Part shown: positions 23,297-44,888 of the stretch, one piece after another
Numbering within the stretch: position 1 is the first letter of the stretch
Layout of the letters: each line of letters opens with the position of its first letter
Assembly: GCA_015069195.1 (NCBI GenBank)
Contig: SVJA01000003.1
Location: forward strand, 129,838 to 193,837
Source: Oscillospiraceae bacterium
GTDB lineage: Bacteria > Bacillota > Clostridia > UBA1212
Length of the DNA: 64,000 nt
Reading direction: 5' to 3'
Program-made: the position numbers and the translations under genes
Notes under the pieces: generated by a model
Seen by the model: only the letters and a program-made list of their open reading frames with translations
Told to the model about the DNA's origin: nothing
The model's database searches: none

Positions 23297-23471
23297 TTGT
23301 TCAATGATAATTGTAATTATTTCCCAAGAATTGCGAATAATCCTTTTATTTAAAGCATTTTTCATTTAAATTATTTCCCTTGATTTTTGGATATTTCCCA
23401 ATAAAAAAGTAATATTCCCTGAAAGCCTGGCATACTTTTTAAAGACAAACTATTATTGGCAGCGGAATTTT

Positions 23472-24610: not shown

Positions 24611-24699
24611 AGTATTTTTCGGTTGTGAGAATTTGTGTATAGGTGTATTATATTTGTGCAAATAAACTTTATTTACAGCAATTTCCGGGATTGATAGAT

Positions 24700-26712
24700 A
24701 TGCACAGAATTCTTCTTGATAAATCAAAAATTATTGTGTTTTTACTGATTGTATCGGTTATTTTCGTTTTTGCATCTTGTGCGGGGCAGGCGGAGAATAC
24801 ATTGTTCCCTTCCGAAAATGAGACTACGGCAGAAGTTTCGGTTCCGTCATCGTCAAATTCTTTCAATGTAAAAACTTTTGAAAGTTTAGAGGCGATTTCC
24901 GCATACAGCCATTGTGAAAAAGTGACAATACAAGGAAATATAGAACTTGCCGGGGATATTGTGTTTAATAATCCTGTCGATATAACGGTAAAGGGTTTTA
25001 TTGTGTCAAATACGCATTCCGTTATTGTAAAGAGTGATAAAAAAACCGTGATAAATGTAGATATAACATCCGGAAGTACTGTATCCGAGGGCGCAATAAT
25101 AATTGATGCCCCGAATTCTGCATTGAATTGGACAGGCGGCTGTGTGCCGGGCGTAGAGCATGTAATTGAAAATATGAATGTGAAGTCATTTAATGACAAT
25201 GACCTGAGCGAAAGGCTTACGGGCGGAACGGGCAAATCTGTTTTTGAAAGCGTTTCACTAAAAGATCCGAAAGGCTCTGATATCGGTTGTGAGTTCTCGG
25301 TAAAAGGGAATGTAATAACTGTACTTTATCCTTTTTCTTTGCATGAAAATAAATTGCGTGATTCCGAAATAGAAATTTCAGCGTCTGATTGTAAAGAAAA
25401 ATTAATTACGGACAGGAATAAAAATAAAGCGGACAAGCTTTCCCTTAACGGTAAGTATGTGTTGACGTTGAGTGACGACGAAGGCAATACACGCGGATAT
25501 TATTTAAATATAAAACGTCGATGTGAAAGTCTTCCGGTTATTTCAGTTTATACGGATGGCGGAAAGAGCATAGACAGCAAAGAAACATATGTTTCGGCTC
25601 AGCTTGGAATTGATTGCAGCGGTTCGAAGGAATACAAAAATTTTTCACTTGATACAAAATCAGTGGGAATTAAAGGTCGTGGAAATGCATCGTGGAATTA
25701 CACTGACAAAAAAGCGTACAGACTTAAATTTGATGAAAAAGTTTCTGTTTTAGGTATGAAAGCCGACAAAGATTGGGTTCTTGTGCCAAATTACTTTGAT
25801 AAAAGTCTGATACGGAATGTTACTGCGCACGAACTTGCAAAGCAGATGGAAAATCTTGAGTACACGCCTACTCATATTTTGGTGGATTTGTTTTTGAACG
25901 GCGAGTATCGCGGTGTCTATACGATTGCTGATAAGATAGAGGTATCAAATAACAAGGTTGATATCGAAACCTCCGACAACGTAGTAAATCCGGGATTTTT
26001 GATAGAGATAGGTTGGGATTATTCATCTGAAAACATATATGGTAAAGACTATTTTGATGTTGAAATTATAAAGAGACTGTATGTAAAAGATCCGGAAATT
26101 ACGTCAAGATATAACAGCCGTATGAACGATATTATCGAGTATGTAAGATTGACGGACAGGGCGATTTCGTCAGGCGAGGGATACGAGAAATACATCGATG
26201 TTGATTCAATGGTAGATTGGTTTATAATCGCCGAACTCACAAACAATACTGAGATGGCATTTTACAGGAGTTGTTATTTTTACAGAGAAGAGGGAGGCAA
26301 AATTAAAATGGGCCCCGTCTGGGACTTTGATATGGCATTCGGAAACCACAGCGCAGATATATCCGGATATGACGGATGGGCAACTGCTGAGGCAGAGTTT
26401 GCGTATGTAAATGACACATGGACTACTTATCTTATAAAAGATAAAGTGTTTATGGATAAAGTACGTGCACGCTGGAATGAAAAGAAAGAAATCCTTTTAA
26501 AGACTGCAGAAGATACAATAGACAATTCTCTGGCGATAATAGGTGATTCGCAAACAGAAAACTTCAAAAAGTGGGATATTCTAGGCAAGCAAATCGGAGA
26601 GGGAAATGTCGATTACAATGAGTATGATACATACGAAAAGCAGGTTGAATATGTGCGTGAATTTGTGGAAAAACGTGCGGAATGGATGACCAATCGGCTG
26701 AACAACGGTTGA
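24700..26712 (+). CDS. CotH-family (spore-coat protein H kinase fold) lipoprotein
   Basis: Lipoprotein signal peptide ...VFASC from ATG 24700; CotH motifs GRGNASWNY, YRLKF, LRN; upstream GTG 24643 start less likely. Confidence 0.8.
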   Translation: MHRILLDKSKIIVFLLIVSVIFVFASCAGQAENTLFPSENETTAEVSVPSSSNSFNVKTFESLEAISAYSHCEKVTIQGNIELAGDIVFNNPVDITVKGFIVSNTHSVIVKSDKKTVINVDITSGSTVSEGAIIIDAPNSALNWTGGCVPGVEHVIENMNVKSFNDNDLSERLTGGTGKSVFESVSLKDPKGSDIGCEFSVKGNVITVLYPFSLHENKLRDSEIEISASDCKEKLITDRNKNKADKLSLNGKYVLTLSDDEGNTRGYYLNIKRRCESLPVISVYTDGGKSIDSKETYVSAQLGIDCSGSKEYKNFSLDTKSVGIKGRGNASWNYTDKKAYRLKFDEKVSVLGMKADKDWVLVPNYFDKSLIRNVTAHELAKQMENLEYTPTHILVDLFLNGEYRGVYTIADKIEVSNNKVDIETSDNVVNPGFLIEIGWDYSSENIYGKDYFDVEIIKRLYVKDPEITSRYNSRMNDIIEYVRLTDRAISSGEGYEKYIDVDSMVDWFIIAELTNNTEMAFYRSCYFYREEGGKIKMGPVWDFDMAFGNHSADISGYDGWATAEAEFAYVNDTWTTYLIKDKVFMDKVRARWNEKKEILLKTAEDTIDNSLAIIGDSQTENFKKWDILGKQIGEGNVDYNEYDTYEKQVEYVREFVEKRAEWMTNRLNNG

Positions 26713-26731: not shown

Positions 26732-27625
26732 GTGAAAAAAACTGATAATGTGAACAGATACATAAAAAATACCGCGCTCATTCTTGCTTTTCTGACAGCG
26801 GTCTCATATATATTATTTATTTGGAAGTCTCCTGTGTTTGATATATTGGAAACTGCTGTGAACACTGTTGAAGCGGAAAGCTTTACTGTTGTGATGAATA
26901 AAGACGGTAAAGATACGGAGTATAGAATCGTTATAGACTTTAAAAATGAAGATATAGCGATGTTATCGGAAAGTAATGCCGGGAATTTTGTTAGCGGAAT
27001 ATACGGTGGTTATTACTTTGAATGTGAATTTATTTCCGGGGAAAATAAGTTCAGCGGCTCTAAAAAAGATATAACGAAAGACATAGAGACTTTATTCGTA
27101 CGATGGAATGATATAAAAAACGGAACCGTTGACAGCTTTGATGCGGAAAGTGTGTTTGATTTTTTAAGCATTATAACAGGAACGGACAGCAAGGTAATAA
27201 GGGCTCACATAGATGAGACAAATTTAAAAAAAACGGTTCTGTCGGCGTTTAAAATATTAAGTGATCGTGAGTGGATGACGGAGTGTCTTAGTCATAAAAG
27301 AGTTATAAAGACCGATTCCGTAACGAATTGTTTTGATTTTAATTTTACGATTCTGGGCGAAACAGTACACGGTCTTTTGATAGAATGCGCGAAAACTTCA
27401 TTTGCCGAATTTGCAATCGAAGATATTACGAGGAAAATCAAGTCGTTAGAGAGCACGATGGTCTTAAAAACGGACCTCACAACAAAACACGGATACCTTA
27501 AAACTGTTACTATGTACGGTGAAAAAAACGGCACAGAATTCAAACTCGAATATGAATTCAAAAACATAGGGAAAACGAAAATAGAAGCCAATGAGTTATC
27601 AAAATATATTGAATATTGCATTTGA
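26732..27625 (+). CDS. hypothetical N-terminally membrane-anchored protein
   Basis: GTG start after GGAGG; single N-terminal TM; no recognisable family. Confidence 0.6.
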   Translation: MKKTDNVNRYIKNTALILAFLTAVSYILFIWKSPVFDILETAVNTVEAESFTVVMNKDGKDTEYRIVIDFKNEDIAMLSESNAGNFVSGIYGGYYFECEFISGENKFSGSKKDITKDIETLFVRWNDIKNGTVDSFDAESVFDFLSIITGTDSKVIRAHIDETNLKKTVLSAFKILSDREWMTECLSHKRVIKTDSVTNCFDFNFTILGETVHGLLIECAKTSFAEFAIEDITRKIKSLESTMVLKTDLTTKHGYLKTVTMYGEKNGTEFKLEYEFKNIGKTKIEANELSKYIEYCI

Positions 27626-39361: not shown

Positions 39362-39513
39362 GCTGAAAATGCGTCTCCTTCCTCTGAAAAATCTCACGCC
39401 GTCTATTTTACCACAGAGAAATAAAATTGCCACATTGAATTAAAAAAAGTTTTATTATATGACGAATTTTGTTATAATTCATACATATTCCGGATATGAA
39501 AGGACGAATAATT

Positions 39514-40965
39514 ATGAGTGATGGTGTAGCACTTCCTACAAGTGACAGAACGACGGTCAATGAGAAACCGGCAGATATATGGGTTTGCCCCGAATTTAAA
39601 GTATCAGGTGTGTTTTCTTCTCATATGGTACTCCAGCGAGACAGGGAAATTTCCGTGTGGGGCTTTTCAACTGCAGTGGGCAGCGTGGTTACTGCAGAAT
39701 TTATGGGAGATACTGTAACGGCGCTTGTAGATAGCGACAACAAGTGGCTCGTAAAACTTCCTGCAAAGGCATATACAAGAGTGCCTCAAACTATGAAAAT
39801 ATACGATGATAAGGGTCACGAGACAATTTTTGAAGATATTCTTATAGGTGATGTGTGGCTTGTCGGCGGTCAGTCAAATGCAGAACTTCCGCTTGCACCA
39901 TGTATGTGTATGACTCCGGATATTGTTTTTAACGAAAATGATAATTTCAGATTATTTATGCAGACGCAGAATTATGTCTACACGCATCAGGAGTATTGCA
40001 ACTATCCGCAGAGAGATATAGTTAATCCGGATTGGCAATGGAAACGCCCGTCTGAGGGAGCGTCACTTGAGTTTTCTGCAATCGGTTGGTATTTTGCACA
40101 AGAACTGACAAAACATATCGATATCCCTATCGGAATGATAAATGTTTCTGCAGGCGGCGCCTGTATAAGAGAACTTGTTCCCGAAGAACTTGCGTACTCT
40201 ATGGGCTACACATTCGGTGCAAACGTCAGGGAGGCCGGCTACTACAATGCATTGATAAATCCTTTCATAGGACTTCAATTCAAAGCAATGATTTTCTTCC
40301 AGGGTGAAAGCGAAGGCGGCGACAAAACTTTTGCAATGCGCTATGCCGACGAACTTTCTCAGCTCGTTGCAAACGAAAGAGAACTGTTTGGTTTTGATTT
40401 CCCGTTTTATAACATGCAGCTTACGGAATATTCCGATCCCGGAGCGTTTCATTTCCCTTGGCACTACATCGTGCGTGTTCAGCAGTTTGACGCGTTAAAA
40501 ATTATTCCCGACTCGGCTTTGATAGTAACTATGGATTACGGCAACCTCGAGGGCTACGATGATATTCATTCACCGCTGAAAAAGCCTCTTTCGGACCGTG
40601 CTGTGTTGCTTGCTCTGGCAAGAGAGTACGGTATAGGAAAGGAAGAAGAAGTTTCATCCCCGATGCCTGTAAAGGCTGAATTGTCTGCTGACAAAAAACA
40701 GGTGGTTATCACTTTTGAAAACGTGCGTGAAGATCTCACAGTCAAGGGCGCATCGTTAAATGGTTTTTGCCTTGGCGATTATGAAAACAGAATTTCCGTC
40801 GAAGCAATCATTTCCGGCAAAAATACAGTTACCGTAAATGTCCCCGAAGGTTGCGAATTTGATTCAATCGGTTACGCTGTCCAAAACAGTATCACAGGTG
40901 ATTTCGCAAACCTCAGAAATTCAATCGGTATGCCTTGCCCGGCGTTTATGGTTGGGGTAGAGTAA
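39514..40965 (+). CDS. sialate O-acetylesterase-like (SASA/SGNH) carbohydrate esterase
   Basis: WLVGGQSNAE motif; ATG 39514 after AAAGGA. Confidence 0.75.
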   Translation: MSDGVALPTSDRTTVNEKPADIWVCPEFKVSGVFSSHMVLQRDREISVWGFSTAVGSVVTAEFMGDTVTALVDSDNKWLVKLPAKAYTRVPQTMKIYDDKGHETIFEDILIGDVWLVGGQSNAELPLAPCMCMTPDIVFNENDNFRLFMQTQNYVYTHQEYCNYPQRDIVNPDWQWKRPSEGASLEFSAIGWYFAQELTKHIDIPIGMINVSAGGACIRELVPEELAYSMGYTFGANVREAGYYNALINPFIGLQFKAMIFFQGESEGGDKTFAMRYADELSQLVANERELFGFDFPFYNMQLTEYSDPGAFHFPWHYIVRVQQFDALKIIPDSALIVTMDYGNLEGYDDIHSPLKKPLSDRAVLLALAREYGIGKEEEVSSPMPVKAELSADKKQVVITFENVREDLTVKGASLNGFCLGDYENRISVEAIISGKNTVTVNVPEGCEFDSIGYAVQNSITGDFANLRNSIGMPCPAFMVGVE

Positions 40966-41021
40966 GCGGAAAATAATTAATTCTATATTTACAGAATCGT
41001 TTTGATCTTAAAACACTACGC

Positions 41022-41062
41022 ATTCAAAAAGTTGAACACTTTTTGAATGCGTAGTTTGTATC
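41022..41062. terminator. bidirectional terminator, perfect 16-bp stem
   Basis: CTACGCATTCAAAAAG-ttgaaca-CTTTTTGAATGCGTAG, T-rich flank. Confidence 0.65.
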
Positions 41063-41157
41063 AATTTTGAGTTTTTATTATGAATTATCATGCATTTTTT
41101 GATACGGGTTGCACCCGGTTGCAAAAGTTGCATTTTTGATTTAGGGCTGCATTGGAG

Positions 41158-41430
41158 TTACTTGAGTATTTCGTGAGGCTGAGGATGCTCTATTTTGTCG
41201 GTATCCCTTTCTCTTGAAAAGCTTAATTCAACAAATTCCATGAGATCGCTGTTAAATTTCCAATGAGAATCGGCAAACCAATGGTTCATAAGCGTTGTGT
41301 ATTTGGAAATTAACGAGTGGACAGCTGAAAGGGAGAAAAGATTTGCCATAGCACCAATATGTTTTTCAAACCACACTTTGCGAGTGTCTTCTATAGAATC
41401 GTATTGGTAATCCGTATTTTCTTTATACAT
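41158..41430 (-). CDS. hypothetical small protein (90 aa), stop-start coupled to upstream 115-aa ORF
   Basis: ATG 41430 immediately follows TAG of upstream ORF in same frame. Confidence 0.5.
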   Translation of the reverse strand: MYKENTDYQYDSIEDTRKVWFEKHIGAMANLFSLSAVHSLISKYTTLMNHWFADSHWKFNSDLMEFVELSFSRERDTDKIEHPQPHEILK

Positions 41431-41778
41431 CTAATGTCCGTTAACCGCATTTGCTCTTACATAGCGCCATTTTTGCGAATTACTTTCTCTGTGAATCAGC
41501 TCATATTTTTGTGCACACATTTTGGTTATTTCTTCGATAACCTTAAAGAAGAGTTCGTCTGTACTTATTGCTTGCGCAATAGTTGTTCTTCTACCGAAAT
41601 CTGTTTCGGCGGTTATACGCAGTCCCTCAATTCGACAATACATATTAAATCCCTGAGATGCATTATCAACTATTTCTTGAGAAAAATATGATGCTAATTC
41701 AACTTTGGCCGATTCAATCTGCTCAGGCAAATCGCTTGGCTTTTTCGCTTTTTTAGTAAACAAGTCAAAGAATCTCAT
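41431..41778 (-). CDS. hypothetical small protein (115 aa)
   Basis: ORF with GGGG SD-like upstream; no recognisable family. Confidence 0.55.
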   Translation of the reverse strand: MRFFDLFTKKAKKPSDLPEQIESAKVELASYFSQEIVDNASQGFNMYCRIEGLRITAETDFGRRTTIAQAISTDELFFKVIEEITKMCAQKYELIHRESNSQKWRYVRANAVNGH

Positions 41779-41806
41779 ACTCTATACCCCAATAATAGTT
41801 TTTATT

Positions 41807-41917
41807 ATTATACCACTGCTAAAAATCATTATACCACTGCTAAAAATCATTGCAATGCATCACGATGAAACTATTCTTTTTGACAATGAAATTATTCTCT
41901 CACAATGAAATTAACCT
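41807..41917 (-). promoter_or_regulatory. promoter/operator: TTGCAA-16-TGgTATAAT, tandemly duplicated 21-bp unit carrying extended -10, plus three 12-bp direct repeats (CACAATGAAATT-like)
   Basis: Read on minus strand upstream of 41778 gene. Confidence 0.5.
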
Positions 41918-42081
41918 CTTATTCCCAAGTGTGTAAAAGCCTTATGCCGCAAGGGGGTTCGGTTATAGACAAAGCACGATGATTTCGTATCAAAACTATA
42001 GTGATAATATGGTCGAAGTATAGTGACTCAAACATTATTTATAGTATTTATCTTTCAATCTAAAAAATAACTGTAGAACTA

Positions 42082-42633
42082 CTAAAGTAATCTTAATATT
42101 TCTTCTTCTGACCACAGTTCGTTTGGGAAAATCGAGATATCATCTTTGTGTTTCCTGATAATACGAATTGGTTCTTCTGTGTTGTCGTAGACATGCATAA
42201 TGTCACAAAGGTTCATTAAATGTTTAATATTTTTCAATGATTTGTCATAACGGTTTCGTATTTTGTCTTCATCGACATTATGTCCGCCGAGTGCTACTCT
42301 TGCTGCAACTCGGGCAACATTAACAGATGGATTTACTGTAAGAACAAAAATACATTTTATGAAATATCCCTCTGCTTTTGCTTTCTCTAAAATATCAAGT
42401 TTATAATGAGAGGAGAGTACTGTTTCAAATGTAAAGTCTTCTTTTTTTGCTATAGATTGATAACGCATCTTATCTGCAAGGACAGCAGATTCTTCGTTAC
42501 TCATTCCTGTCGTGTGTGATATATCGTCTGCGTTGGTATATGTTCCGACAATATCAAGAAATTGTGTGATGGTACTTTTGCCCGAACCGTTTGGACCGGC
42601 AAAAACAAGCAACATGGGCTTTTTATCCGACAT
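42082..42633 (-). CDS. zeta-toxin/AAA_33-like P-loop kinase (183 aa)
   Basis: Walker A FAGPNGSGKST; ...RVALGGHNVDEDKIRNRY; ATG 42633 overlaps upstream gene by 11 nt. Confidence 0.7.
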   Translation of the reverse strand: MSDKKPMLLVFAGPNGSGKSTITQFLDIVGTYTNADDISHTTGMSNEESAVLADKMRYQSIAKKEDFTFETVLSSHYKLDILEKAKAEGYFIKCIFVLTVNPSVNVARVAARVALGGHNVDEDKIRNRYDKSLKNIKHLMNLCDIMHVYDNTEEPIRIIRKHKDDISIFPNELWSEEEILRLL

Positions 42634-42856
42634 AAGTTTTCTTACCGTCCTCTGTTTCAATATAAGCCTTTTGTTTTACTCGATCATATCTGGCAATAGG
42701 TTTTCTACAAGTTTTTGCTTTGTGAATAGCCGATTTTACAGCCTCTTTTGCGCGAGTGTCCATTTCCTCTTCGTTTTTGGAAAACATTTCACTCGTATTA
42801 TCCGCTGATACAACAGTTATTGATCGATTGTCGGTCAATTTAATTGTTTTATTCAT
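42623..42856 (-). CDS. small (77 aa) protein, putative antitoxin/regulator partner of kinase
   Basis: GGAGGA RBS; overlaps kinase start (ATGTCGGATAA). Confidence 0.6.
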   Translation of the reverse strand: MNKTIKLTDNRSITVVSADNTSEMFSKNEEEMDTRAKEAVKSAIHKAKTCRKPIARYDRVKQKAYIETEDGKKTYVG

Positions 42857-42942
42857 AGCTATTCCTCCAATGATAGATTACGTTGAATATATCAACACAT
42901 ATAGTGTACTATATTTTACGAAGATATTCAATCATAGGTACA

Positions 42943-43214
42943 ATTCAAAAATCTGATATCATGCCAATTTCACCTTGATTTCTCCGCTAATAATATCGAA
43001 AAAACCTCACTGAATAAAATTTAAAAATTCGATATCGAGCGAATTACACCTTTTACTTTGGTGAAAACAATCGAAAAAGGGACTCACGAAAAAATTCAAA
43101 AATTTGATATCGGGCAGATTACCTCTTTCGTGCTTTGCTGGAACCTTCGAAAAAACGATCAGGGGTAGGAATTTCAAAATCGGATACCGGGCCGATTTTA
43201 ATTCCTACCCCCTG
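42943..43214. repeat. degenerate ~75-bp tandem repeat x3.5, each with GATATC-centred palindromic core
   Basis: Cores at 42943, 43023, 43098, 43172; last unit contains 12-bp inverted repeat GGGGTAGGAATT/AATTCCTACCCC. Confidence 0.7.
43151..43205 (-). terminator. terminator-like hairpin immediately downstream of fhs
   Basis: 12-bp stem, then TGATCGTTTTTTCG on minus strand. Confidence 0.45.
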
Positions 43215-43223
43215 TTGTTTTTA

Positions 43224-44888
43224 TCAGAACAATCCACTTATCACGCCGTCTGCATCAACGTCGATTTTCTCGGCTGCCGGTACTTTCGGAAGACCGGGCA
43301 TTGTCATAATTTCGCCTGTGAGAGCTACGATGAAGCCTGCACCTGCTGAAATTTTTACGTTGCGAACAGTAACCGTGAAGTTTTCCGGAGCACAAATCTT
43401 TGTAGCATCGTCAGAGAAGCTGTACTGTGTTTTTGCCATACAGATTGGCAAGTTGCCGAATCCGTTTGCTTCGAGCTGGGCAATTTGCTTCTTTGCTTGT
43501 GCGGTGAATGCTGCGCCGCTGCCGCGGTAGATTCGTTTAACGATGGTGTCGATTTTGTTTTCGATTGTATCGTCAAGGCCGTAGCTGAATTCAAATGTGC
43601 TCGGTGTTTCGCAAAGTCTTACAACCTCTTGTGCGAGTTCTATGGCGCCGTTGCCGCCTTCTGCCCAGACATTTGACAAACATACGTTAACGCCTAATTT
43701 ACGGCATTTTTCAGCGATGAGAGCTATTTCTGCGTCTGTGTCGGTTGGGAAACGATTGATAGCAACAACTGCGGGGAGTTTGTATACATCTTTTATATTT
43801 GAAACGTGTCTTAAGAGGTTCGGCATACCTGCTGCAAGAGCCTCCAAGTCTTCACCGCCGAGCTCTGTTTTGGGAACACCGCCGTGCATTTTGAGAGCAC
43901 GAACCGTTGCTACCACAACAACTGCCGACGGTTTGAGTCCGCCGAAACGGCACTTTATATCAAGGAACTTCTGCGCACCGAGGTCTGCGCCGAAACCGGC
44001 TTCTGTTACTGTATAATCTGCAAGCTTCATAGCCATTTTTGTTGCAATCATTGAGTTACAGCCGTGTGCGATGTTTGCGAAAGGTCCGCCGTGAACGAAT
44101 GCCGGTGTACCTTCCAAAGTCTGAACGAGGTTCGGTTTGATAGCGTCCTTGAGGAGTGCTGTCATTGCACCGTGAGCATTGAGCTGACCTGCAGTAACCG
44201 GTTTTTCGTCATAAGTGTAGCCGACGATAATTTTTGAAAGTCTTTCCTTGAGGTCGGTGATTGACGAAGCAAGACAGAGAACAGCCATAATTTCAGATGC
44301 AACGGTGATATCGTATCCGTCCTCTCTCGGAACGCCGTTTACACGGCCGCCGAGACCGTCAGTTACGAAACGAAGCTGTCTGTCGTTCATATCCACACAA
44401 CGCTTCCATGTGATTCTGCGAGGGTCAATATTGAGGGCGTTGCCCTGATAAATGTGGTTGTCGAGCATTGCTGCAAGAAGGTTGTTTGCGGCCCCGATTG
44501 CGTGGAAGTCGCCTGTAAAGTGAAGATTGATGTCCTCCATAGGAACAACCTGTGCGTAGCCGCCGCCTGCAGCACCGCCTTTTACGCCAAAAACAGGGCC
44601 GAGTGAAGGCTCTCTGAGTGCGGCAATAACATTCTTTCCGATTTTATTAAGACCGTCTGCAAGGCCGATAGAAGTCGTTGTTTTGCCTTCGCCTGCAGGG
44701 GTAGGGGTGATGGCTGTAACCAAAATGAGTTTGCCGTCTTTTTTGTCGCTGTTTAAAAGGCTGAGATCAACTTTTGCCTTGTATTTTCCGTATTGTTCGA
44801 GATTATCCTCGGGAATACCTGCCTTTGCGGCAATTTCCGTAATATTTTTCATTTGTACCGACTGTGCAATTTCAATATCGCTTTTCAT
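43224..44888 (-). CDS. fhs: formate--tetrahydrofolate ligase
   Basis: FTHFS family along full length. Confidence 0.95.

Follow-up and report, generated by a model that had tools for sequence, protein, structure and literature searches.

A GC-poor islet between the convergent fhs and esterase genes of an Oscillospiraceae bacterium: probably a mobile zeta-type toxin–antitoxin cassette beside a broken gene of a rare family

A 64,000-nucleotide stretch of the genome of an Oscillospiraceae bacterium (contig SVJA01000003.1), referred to here at its full length as the window, contains at positions 41100–43222 a short islet of small open reading frames (ORFs) lying between a carbohydrate esterase gene and the formate–tetrahydrofolate ligase gene fhs. 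An earlier inspection of the sequence alone, the original prediction, had judged that this islet looks horizontally acquired and could be a compact toxin–antitoxin or defense-type module with its own regulated promoter, which raises the question of whether the islet is one foreign operon or something assembled from unrelated parts. The analysis indicates that it is probably a composite of two independently acquired pieces, a mobile zeta-type toxin–antitoxin cassette and the broken gene of a rare family, both of which lie in the gap downstream of fhs, between the convergent fhs and esterase genes. The annotation of the locus is corrected accordingly, from four genes to three, one of them broken.

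The islet stands apart in composition. Its guanine–cytosine (GC) content is 35.5%, compared with 41.8% for the whole window (standard deviation 0.024 for 2.1-kb windows), and it marks the GC minimum among all 2.1-kb stretches of the 64 kb; the sliding windows that are as GC-poor amount to 0.6%, every one of them overlapping the islet. By tetranucleotide distance it ranks in the top 0.65% of the window, and the greater AT-richness relative to the flanks that the original prediction had described is thus borne out by both the windowed GC and the tetranucleotide check. Four minus-strand ORFs of 77, 183 (counted from the ATG), 115 and 90 amino acids (aa) are found within it, and independent gene callers applied to other assemblies of the same organism give exactly these four. 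The NCBI locus tags of this interval are E7384_03490–03500. The GC content of these ORFs is 0.355–0.371, against a mean of 0.426 (standard deviation 0.026) for the 54 other ORFs of the window, just one of which matches them in low GC, and the three long intergenic regions of the islet have values of 0.31–0.34. Because the four ORFs are themselves GC-poor, the low GC of the islet does not stem from noncoding DNA alone.

The putative toxin–antitoxin cassette

The first piece (42081–42931) would be a self-contained, horizontally mobile type II toxin–antitoxin cassette. Its features are the following:

42623–42856, minus strand: putative antitoxin of 77 residues, from a family without a name, recognized as the conserved partner upstream of the toxin
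42082–42633, minus strand: toxin, a 183-residue short PezT/zeta-family P-loop kinase, recognized from its Pfam match, structural model and motifs
42899–42931, minus strand: predicted cassette promoter, TTGAATAT-N15-TACACT with a 17-nt spacer, read from the sequence

The toxin matches the Pfam family Zeta_toxin (PF06414) with an E value of 1.6e-11 and 44.5 bits, above the curated cut-off of 22.3, while NCBIfam, PHROGs and PADLOC return generic P-loop or nucleotide-kinase matches only. AlphaFold, given 25 homologs, produced a confident model (predicted local distance difference test score, pLDDT, 89.6), and the top matches of this model in a Foldseek search of the PDB are PezT (2p5t), zeta (1gvn and 3q8x) and AvrRxo1 (4z8q), with polynucleotide and nucleotide kinases ranked below these zeta-type toxins. 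Searches of the PDB by sequence only, with phmmer and a shallow profile, gave neither zeta nor PezT, and hhalign of the toxin profile to solved zeta toxins matched the P-loop and nothing more. With a broader hidden Markov model (HMM), which took in seven homologs from plasmids, an alignment to PezT was obtained that spans Walker A, the catalytic aspartate and the glutamate and places the Walker A lysine of the toxin on PezT K45, D36 on D66 and E70 on the glutamate of the IEGT motif.

The motifs of the toxin comprise GPNGSGKS, N34, D36, E70, R108, R112 and GGH118, and K19, N34, D36, E70, R108, R112 and H118 are invariant in the alignment of the family (25 homologs). The R108/R112/H118 pattern resembles R116/H122 of Rv0366c from Mycobacterium tuberculosis, a comparison made by motif and not by residue-level alignment to R158 and R171 of zeta. 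The GTXR motif for UDP-N-acetylglucosamine (UDP-GlcNAc) is absent: the toxin has FETVLSS where zeta has IEGTGR, with TVLSS following E70. Since GTXR is missing, the substrate is probably not the classical UDP-GlcNAc, and the motif set as a whole files the toxin with the zeta/PezT family as an Rv0366c-like subtype, outside the canonical UDP-GlcNAc kinases.

The closest described counterpart at the level of motifs is Rv0366c–Rv0367c (PezAT-Mtb), a non-canonical PezAT-like pair of M. tuberculosis in which overexpression of Rv0366c arrests growth and the upstream gene rescues it (Tandon et al. 2019, PMC6362051). Both Rv0366c and the window toxin are Zeta_toxin-family proteins of fewer than 200 residues encoded behind a small upstream antitoxin gene, and Rv0366c shares with it GPNG(A/S)GKS, Asn34, Asp36, a glutamate after strand 3 and an arginine followed six residues later by a histidine, a match that holds at the motif level; it likewise has no GTXR motif (PMC6362051). 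The partners differ, as Rv0367c has a ribbon–helix–helix N-terminus with PezA-like C-terminal signatures (PMC6362051), and its cluster has been assigned to Pfam ParD_like (review, PMC10532202), whereas the partner in the window matches no Pfam family. The host phylum differs as well. The better known epsilon/zeta system of pSM19035 and PezAT of Streptococcus pneumoniae belong to the same Pfam family and fold as the window toxin (Foldseek E 4.5e-7 to 1.4e-6), share its Walker A lysine, catalytic aspartate and glutamate, and also have the antitoxin gene upstream in the same operon. In contrast to zeta and PezT, the window toxin is approximately 100 residues shorter, is 13–18% identical to them and lacks GTXR, and the window cassette contains neither an epsilon or PezA antitoxin nor an omega regulator. 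The highest query-normalized structural similarity to the window toxin is that of AvrRxo1–Arc1 from Xanthomonas (TM 0.72). AvrRxo1 is a zeta-like kinase with nicotinamide adenine dinucleotide, not UDP-GlcNAc, as its substrate, and Arc1 is its antidote. However, AvrRxo1 is far larger, an effector exported by type III secretion, and is 14–16% identical to the window toxin, and the resemblance supports no inference on the substrate.

The antitoxin gene precedes the toxin gene on the same strand and overlaps it by 11 nt. Its family has a conserved core, D-x-EMD-x-RA-xx-AV-xx-A-xxx-A-xx-C-x-KP-x-A-x-YD, although no Pfam family matches the window protein, and 23 members give singleton matches only, none of them family-wide. 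Epsilon_antitox, HTH and ParD_like have no match at E <= 1 in any of these 23 partner proteins, and the PDB contains no significant sequence match to the antitoxin. Many PezT/zeta homologs have upstream partners other than PezA or epsilon (review, PMC10532202). Upstream of the gene, a 16-bp palindrome, ATATAGT-AC-ACTATAT (42899–42914), overlaps the predicted -10 box of the cassette promoter and is a candidate operator. The layout TTGAATAT-N15-TATAAT recurs in the close relatives L018, L020, L023, L025 and L065.

The toxin family is large, with 4,392 matches and more than 100 clusters at 74–85% identity, from rumen and gut Clostridia. Ninety-one other cassette loci were examined: 88 from assemblies and metagenomes, one on plasmid pCY360 and three on IMG/VR viral contigs. 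A partner homolog of 76–81 residues, 36–69% identical to the window antitoxin, lies directly upstream of the toxin in all 91, or its place is lost at a contig end, and the two genes overlap by 8 or 11 nt wherever both are complete. What surrounds this pair differs from locus to locus and includes an M3 peptidase with a DUF2284 gene in one sampled locus and an arsenic-resistance operon in another. The plasmid in question is the megaplasmid pCY360 of Butyrivibrio proteoclasticus B316, and 474 plasmids, spread over many phyla, carry short relatives of the toxin, there too preceded by small genes without names. The GC content of the cassette is below that of its flanks in 39 of 46 loci, and DNA homology between the window and the other loci extends from the ribosome-binding site (42868) to the toxin stop (42081) only. 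Copies 67–85% identical to the toxin occur in genomes whose PurL is 61% identical, the figure of 85% coming from one of them. The original prediction had judged the segment to look horizontally acquired, and this is supported indirectly by the composition, by the discordance between toxin (67–85%) and PurL (61%) identity, and by the varied contexts, the megaplasmid and the viral contigs. Its suggestion of a compact toxin–antitoxin module with its own promoter holds for a two-gene unit and fails for all four genes, the shared DNA being confined to 42081–42868.

Several individual loci have features of their own. In the IMG/VR contig L134 (2975–5555), the cassette sits between two endolysin genes, which it directly follows, and a DNA methyltransferase gene, a placement typical of the phage “moron” position. 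The cassette region of L020–L022 contains a WHH/colicin-DNase toxin, a SUKH immunity gene, an IS66 fragment, a Schlafen/AlbA_2 ATPase and a HerA-like ATPase. In the metagenomic locus L095 (3788–4005), the antitoxin is frameshifted (two tblastn pieces, a 52-aa ORF) and the toxin is seemingly intact.

The kinase would use ATP to phosphorylate a small nucleotide-type metabolite, leading to growth arrest, while the 77-residue protein would bind and neutralize the kinase and might, by way of the palindrome at the -10 box, act as a repressor of the promoter. By analogy with similar pairs, the likely consequence would be stabilization of the carrier DNA, or an arrest of growth when the cell is stressed or attacked by phage. 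We infer toxicity, neutralization, substrate and autoregulation, as we do the origin of the tRNA relic described below as an integration site. The kind of cassette is known, a non-canonical short PezT/zeta toxin–antitoxin pair, and for this genome the finding is an ordinary one; the antitoxin family is undescribed. Because the cassette family is abundant and its antitoxin unnamed, it would be a reasonable target for the biochemistry of non-canonical zeta toxins, including the substrate of its GTXR-less kinase.

The split gene and its upstream region

The second piece (41158–42033) would be the remnant of a different insertion, comprising the 3' relic of a tRNA-Leu with its terminator, a promoter region and a gene of approximately 206 residues. 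Its features, all on the minus strand, are as follows:

41431–41778, minus strand: N-terminal fragment (the 115-aa ORF) of the ~206-residue gene, recognized from full-length relatives
41158–41430, minus strand: C-terminal fragment (the 90-aa ORF) of the same gene, its ATG right after an in-frame TAG, recognized from full-length relatives
41431–41433, minus strand: in-frame TAG at a conserved tryptophan codon, from alignment and codon comparison
41828–41855, minus strand: predicted split-gene promoter, TTGCAA, 16-nt spacer and TATAAT preceded by TG, from the sequence
41809–41850, minus strand: exact 21-bp tandem duplication (41809–41829 and 41830–41850; TRF, 2.1 copies, 100% identity)
41861–41913, minus strand: three direct repeats of TAATTTCATTGTG, TA(A/G)TTTCAT(T/C)GT(G/C), at 19–21-nt spacing just upstream of the -35 box
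41935–42033, minus strand: putative decayed tRNA-Leu 3' end (42010–42033), terminator hairpin (41971–41996) and second small hairpin (41935–41957), from alignment with contigs L114 and L119

The 115-aa and 90-aa ORFs share one reading frame, and the TAG at 41431–41433 alone separates them. HMMER, run exhaustively over 1.84 billion representatives, turned up six clusters of this family, and the proteins P0123, P0124, P0125 and P0127 (187–231 residues) align with the 115-aa ORF and then run on through the 90-aa ORF, which is 63% identical to P0123. All four of these full-length relatives have tryptophan (TGG) at the TAG site, so that a single G-to-A change has split a gene of approximately 206 residues. 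The TAG site shows no variation among the 15 same-species contigs. The description of the islet as small proteins plus a toxin-like kinase therefore stands for the kinase, a member of Zeta_toxin, and has to be amended for the 115-aa and 90-aa products, which are halves of one gene. Among the 58 long ORFs of the window, 39 end in TAA, 17 in TGA and two in TAG; both TAGs lie inside the islet, as the toxin stop and the nonsense codon, and a TAG stop is used by none of the 54 other ORFs. Recoding of TAG was considered and rejected, as an internal TAG occurs in no other credible gene of the window.

The family itself is rare and has few recognizable connections. A word-indexed search of 5.8 billion clusters with the 90-aa ORF returned only the query itself, with the same outcome for the 115-aa ORF, and the split gene matches no Pfam family. 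An AlphaFold model of P0123 (pLDDT 81) forms one alpha/beta domain with the split site inside a beta-hairpin, and has no significant structural match in the PDB or BFVD. Phage and plasmid records gave no tblastn match to the family, and a search of viral contigs gave no relatives. Three of seven family members give sub-threshold matches to Imm63 (PF15599), predicted to provide immunity in polymorphic toxin systems, each time in one shared stretch of ~40 residues (best E 8.3e-4); all scores fall below the cut-off of 26.7, the 115-aa ORF reaching 16 bits and P0123 15.2 bits, and with no adjacent toxin gene and no supporting structural match this likeness is a lead only. The gene for P0123, the closest full-length relative, lies 218 nt downstream of a PARG_cat_microb poly(ADP-ribose) glycohydrolase gene on a 2-kb contig (L113, 138–1779).

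The nonsense change from TGG to TAG makes it most likely that the gene has been inactivated, and we regard it as most likely a recently inactivated gene of unknown function. At best it would yield two fragments, re-initiation being conceivable because an ATG adjoins the TAG. That codon is Arg, Leu, Thr or Cys in the relatives, and the difference can be taken as a sign that the 115-aa and 90-aa products form a functional two-subunit pair, either a stable fission or a second toxin–immunity pair, with stop and start coupled at TAG-ATG. Such a pair would also agree with the absence of any further stop or frameshift in the halves, with the 63% identity of the C-terminal half to P0123, with the retention of a strong predicted promoter whose -10 region is even duplicated, and with the fixation of the arrangement in the sampled contigs, although fixation says little because these contigs are nearly clonal. 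Yet a single transition suffices to put the stop at an otherwise invariant tryptophan, the break falls in a beta-hairpin of what is predicted to be one domain, and all four full-length relatives are unsplit, and we therefore consider a working pair unlikely, although a tolerated fission is the chief competitor of inactivation.

The DNA upstream of the broken gene is better conserved than the gene itself. The 303 bp from the toxin stop to the 115-aa ORF are approximately 77% identical to the DNA upstream of P0124 on contig L114, exceeding the conservation of the coding regions (51% identical as protein). The L114 promoter is at the same place, with TTGCGA, a 17-nt spacer and TATAAT. The 21-bp duplication, which doubles the TGgTATAAT extended -10 box, is specific to the window and not present in L114, whereas the triple direct repeat is conserved beside the gene in L114, with one copy in the viral contig L119; it is a candidate regulator-binding site or recombinase arm-type site, as judged from its sequence and placement. 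This duplication and the direct repeats form one of the two repeat-containing regions to which the original prediction had drawn attention, the other being the 75-nt units before the antitoxin ORF, and both exist. The 3' untranslated region (UTR) of the split gene (41091–41151) contains two 23-nt direct repeats of TGCA-N15-TGCA type, 74% identical and 38 nt apart, and three TGCAAC motifs; neither these repeats nor the motifs are conserved in L114.

The counterpart of the upstream region in L114 starts with a tRNA-Leu(GAG) gene that is intact and has its terminator hairpin. The putative relic in the window is identical at 17 of 24 positions over the last ~24 nt of the tRNA, and the loop and 3' arm of the hairpin are nearly intact. 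A whole decayed tRNA was rejected, since the similarity is limited to the last ~24–34 nt and the 5' part aligns no better than shuffled sequences; ARAGORN finds no tRNA in the window, which also contains no second copy of the partial tRNA-Leu. The 48-nt hairpin AGCACGATGG-TTTTGATACGAAA-CCATCGTGCT, which is the tRNA-Leu terminator in L114, recurs in three IMG/VR contigs of the same rumen sample series, namely L117 (1–4900), L118 (688–735) and L119 (7130–7235). In L119 it follows a partial tRNA 3' end, as in the window, and in L117 it stands at the contig end, adjoining three tandem large serine recombinase genes, for which reason the hairpin may be a recombination target. The alignment suggests the relic of a tRNA-Leu integration hot spot, which may have been carried with the 206-residue gene or have been its neighbor.

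Probable separate acquisitions and competing readings

In the loci examined elsewhere the parts of the islet do not travel together, which bears on whether it is one system or two. Halves of the split gene accompany the cassette in none of the 91 other cassette loci, and the cassette accompanies the split-gene family in none of four loci. Never together in those loci, and kept apart by the relic of a terminator and by a conserved promoter that belongs to the split gene, the cassette and the split gene are separate acquisitions. We prefer to think of the seemingly elaborate “defense islet” as selfish and decaying DNA that has accumulated where two convergent genes leave a permissive gap. Horizontal origin is supported indirectly, because composition is discordant, identity is out of step with that of housekeeping genes, and the contexts are multiple, with carriage on a plasmid and on phage contigs. 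All retrievable same-species contigs, which come from a number of rumen metagenomes and from one metagenome-assembled genome listed at NCBI as “Ruminococcaceae bacterium”, are at least 99.9% identical, and the nearest other genomes in a scan of genome collections (esterase 54–60% identical) have no synteny with the window and no fhs, azlCD or islet genes nearby.

Several points weigh against the composite interpretation or parts of it. The islet is invariant in all same-species contigs, the polymorphisms being confined to synonymous sites in fhs, and it is not delimited by an integrase, a transposase or flanking direct repeats. The cassette DNA is approximately 74% identical to the nearest cassettes, for which reason its acquisition is not recent. 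No DNA-binding, epsilon or PezA domain is recognizable in the antitoxin, and the experiments on toxicity and neutralization concern the related Rv0366c/Rv0367c (PMC6362051). The tRNA relic is short, with an anchored binomial P of about 5e-3 to 6e-4 over 34 nt, and the remaining tRNA body is undetectable upstream. Neither half of the split gene is further disrupted, so that its nonsense change must be recent or else tolerated.

A bolder reading would have the kinase, which lacks the UDP-GlcNAc motif and at times sits directly behind phage lysis genes, act on a substrate new to the toxin family, with its partner completing a phage-exclusion or prophage-stabilizing cassette of rumen and gut Clostridia, and would separately see in the split gene a new immunity-type fold controlled through the triple repeat and active as two fragments; we consider this combination distinctly improbable.

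It is very unlikely that the host simply has here a non-toxic kinase of the usual kind, for small molecules or nucleotides, with a small co-translated partner, the low GC then following from genes that are short and weakly expressed and from the length of the intergenic regions. Weak similarity to guanylate, thymidylate and other nucleotide kinases and the presence of polynucleotide kinase and adenylate kinase folds among the structural matches point in that direction, as does the intergenic DNA of the window, which is generally about 36% GC. However, by sequence family as well as by structure the zeta, PezT and AvrRxo1 toxins come out best, the low GC extends to the coding sequences, and an obligatory overlapping partner, scattered contexts, plasmid and phage carriage and an identity far above that of housekeeping genes are the hallmarks of an addiction module.

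That all four ORFs form one defense or toxin–antitoxin-like operon, with the two downstream proteins as accessory sensor or immunity parts, is scarcely credible: the common strand, the lack of a clear terminator after the toxin gene, the low GC across the whole segment and the sub-threshold Imm63 matches in three of seven family members speak in its favor, but the downstream ORFs are a single gene cut by a stop codon, the 303-bp spacer with its own conserved promoter and tRNA/terminator relic lies in between, no system-specific PADLOC model applies, and the lack of co-occurrence in either direction (0 of 91 and 0 of 4) largely refutes it. The proposal of a defense-type module is not supported, the PADLOC run having given generic P-loop matches and no system membership; against PADLOC-DB 2.0, the N-terminal P-loop of the kinase (residues 8–96, best E 2.4e-7) matched long ATPases only, and the other three ORFs matched nothing.

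Boundaries, 75-nt repeats and other features of the window

With the composite of cassette and broken gene as the preferred reading, the surroundings of the islet and the repeats at its fhs end can be described as follows:

39496–40965, plus strand: SASA-family carbohydrate esterase gene, neighbor of the islet
43224–44888, minus strand: formate–tetrahydrofolate ligase gene fhs, neighbor of the islet
41015–41055, esterase/islet junction: bidirectional terminator hairpin with perfect 18-bp arms and a 5-nt loop, found as an inverted repeat
43151–43222, minus strand: fhs terminator hairpin with 23-nt arms, the upstream islet boundary, found as an inverted repeat and by RNA folding
42900–43203, minus strand: four degenerate tandem units of 75–77 nt with a short palindrome around GATATCRAATTTTTRAATT in each, from a repeat search and MAFFT

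As the esterase and fhs genes are convergent, the islet fills the space downstream of fhs. The two bounding terminators noted in the original prediction are present as the hairpins at 41015–41055 and 43151–43222; Rfam gives chance matches of hairpin type only at the former. No recombinase is found among the ORFs of 41100–43222.

The first of the 75-nt units reaches into the fhs terminator, and the last stops where the cassette-type promoter starts. Their mean column identity is 73% in the MAFFT alignment, which flatters the figure, and the core GATATCRAATTTTTRAATT occurs in three copies in the islet repeats and nowhere else in the window, with 0.31 expected. The units are present in none of the other toxin–antitoxin loci, viral contigs give single, probably chance, matches, and Rfam has no match in them. 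Most likely they belong to the fhs-downstream region of the host or arose by local duplication, and they could possibly serve as an operator array or as an insulator composed of decayed terminator copies. A CRISPR-like (clustered regularly interspaced short palindromic repeats) arrangement was rejected, as the “spacers” are also alike between units and the core is imperfect. A 56-aa minus-strand ORF at 43007–43177, called by no pipeline, repeats its own peptide (LPDIKFLNFF / LDIEFLNFIQ), which follows from a repeat unit of 25 codons; it is probably not a gene, and the small-ORF reading was rejected with the ORF seen as a by-product of the 25-codon period.

Elsewhere in the window, the ORFs at 26732–27625 (35.2% GC) and 24643–26712 (38.2% GC) are further compositional outliers, and the tetranucleotide distance also peaks near positions 23300 and 4300. 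The ORF that begins with GTG at 24643 is preceded by 74 codons that are open in frame, back to a TAG.

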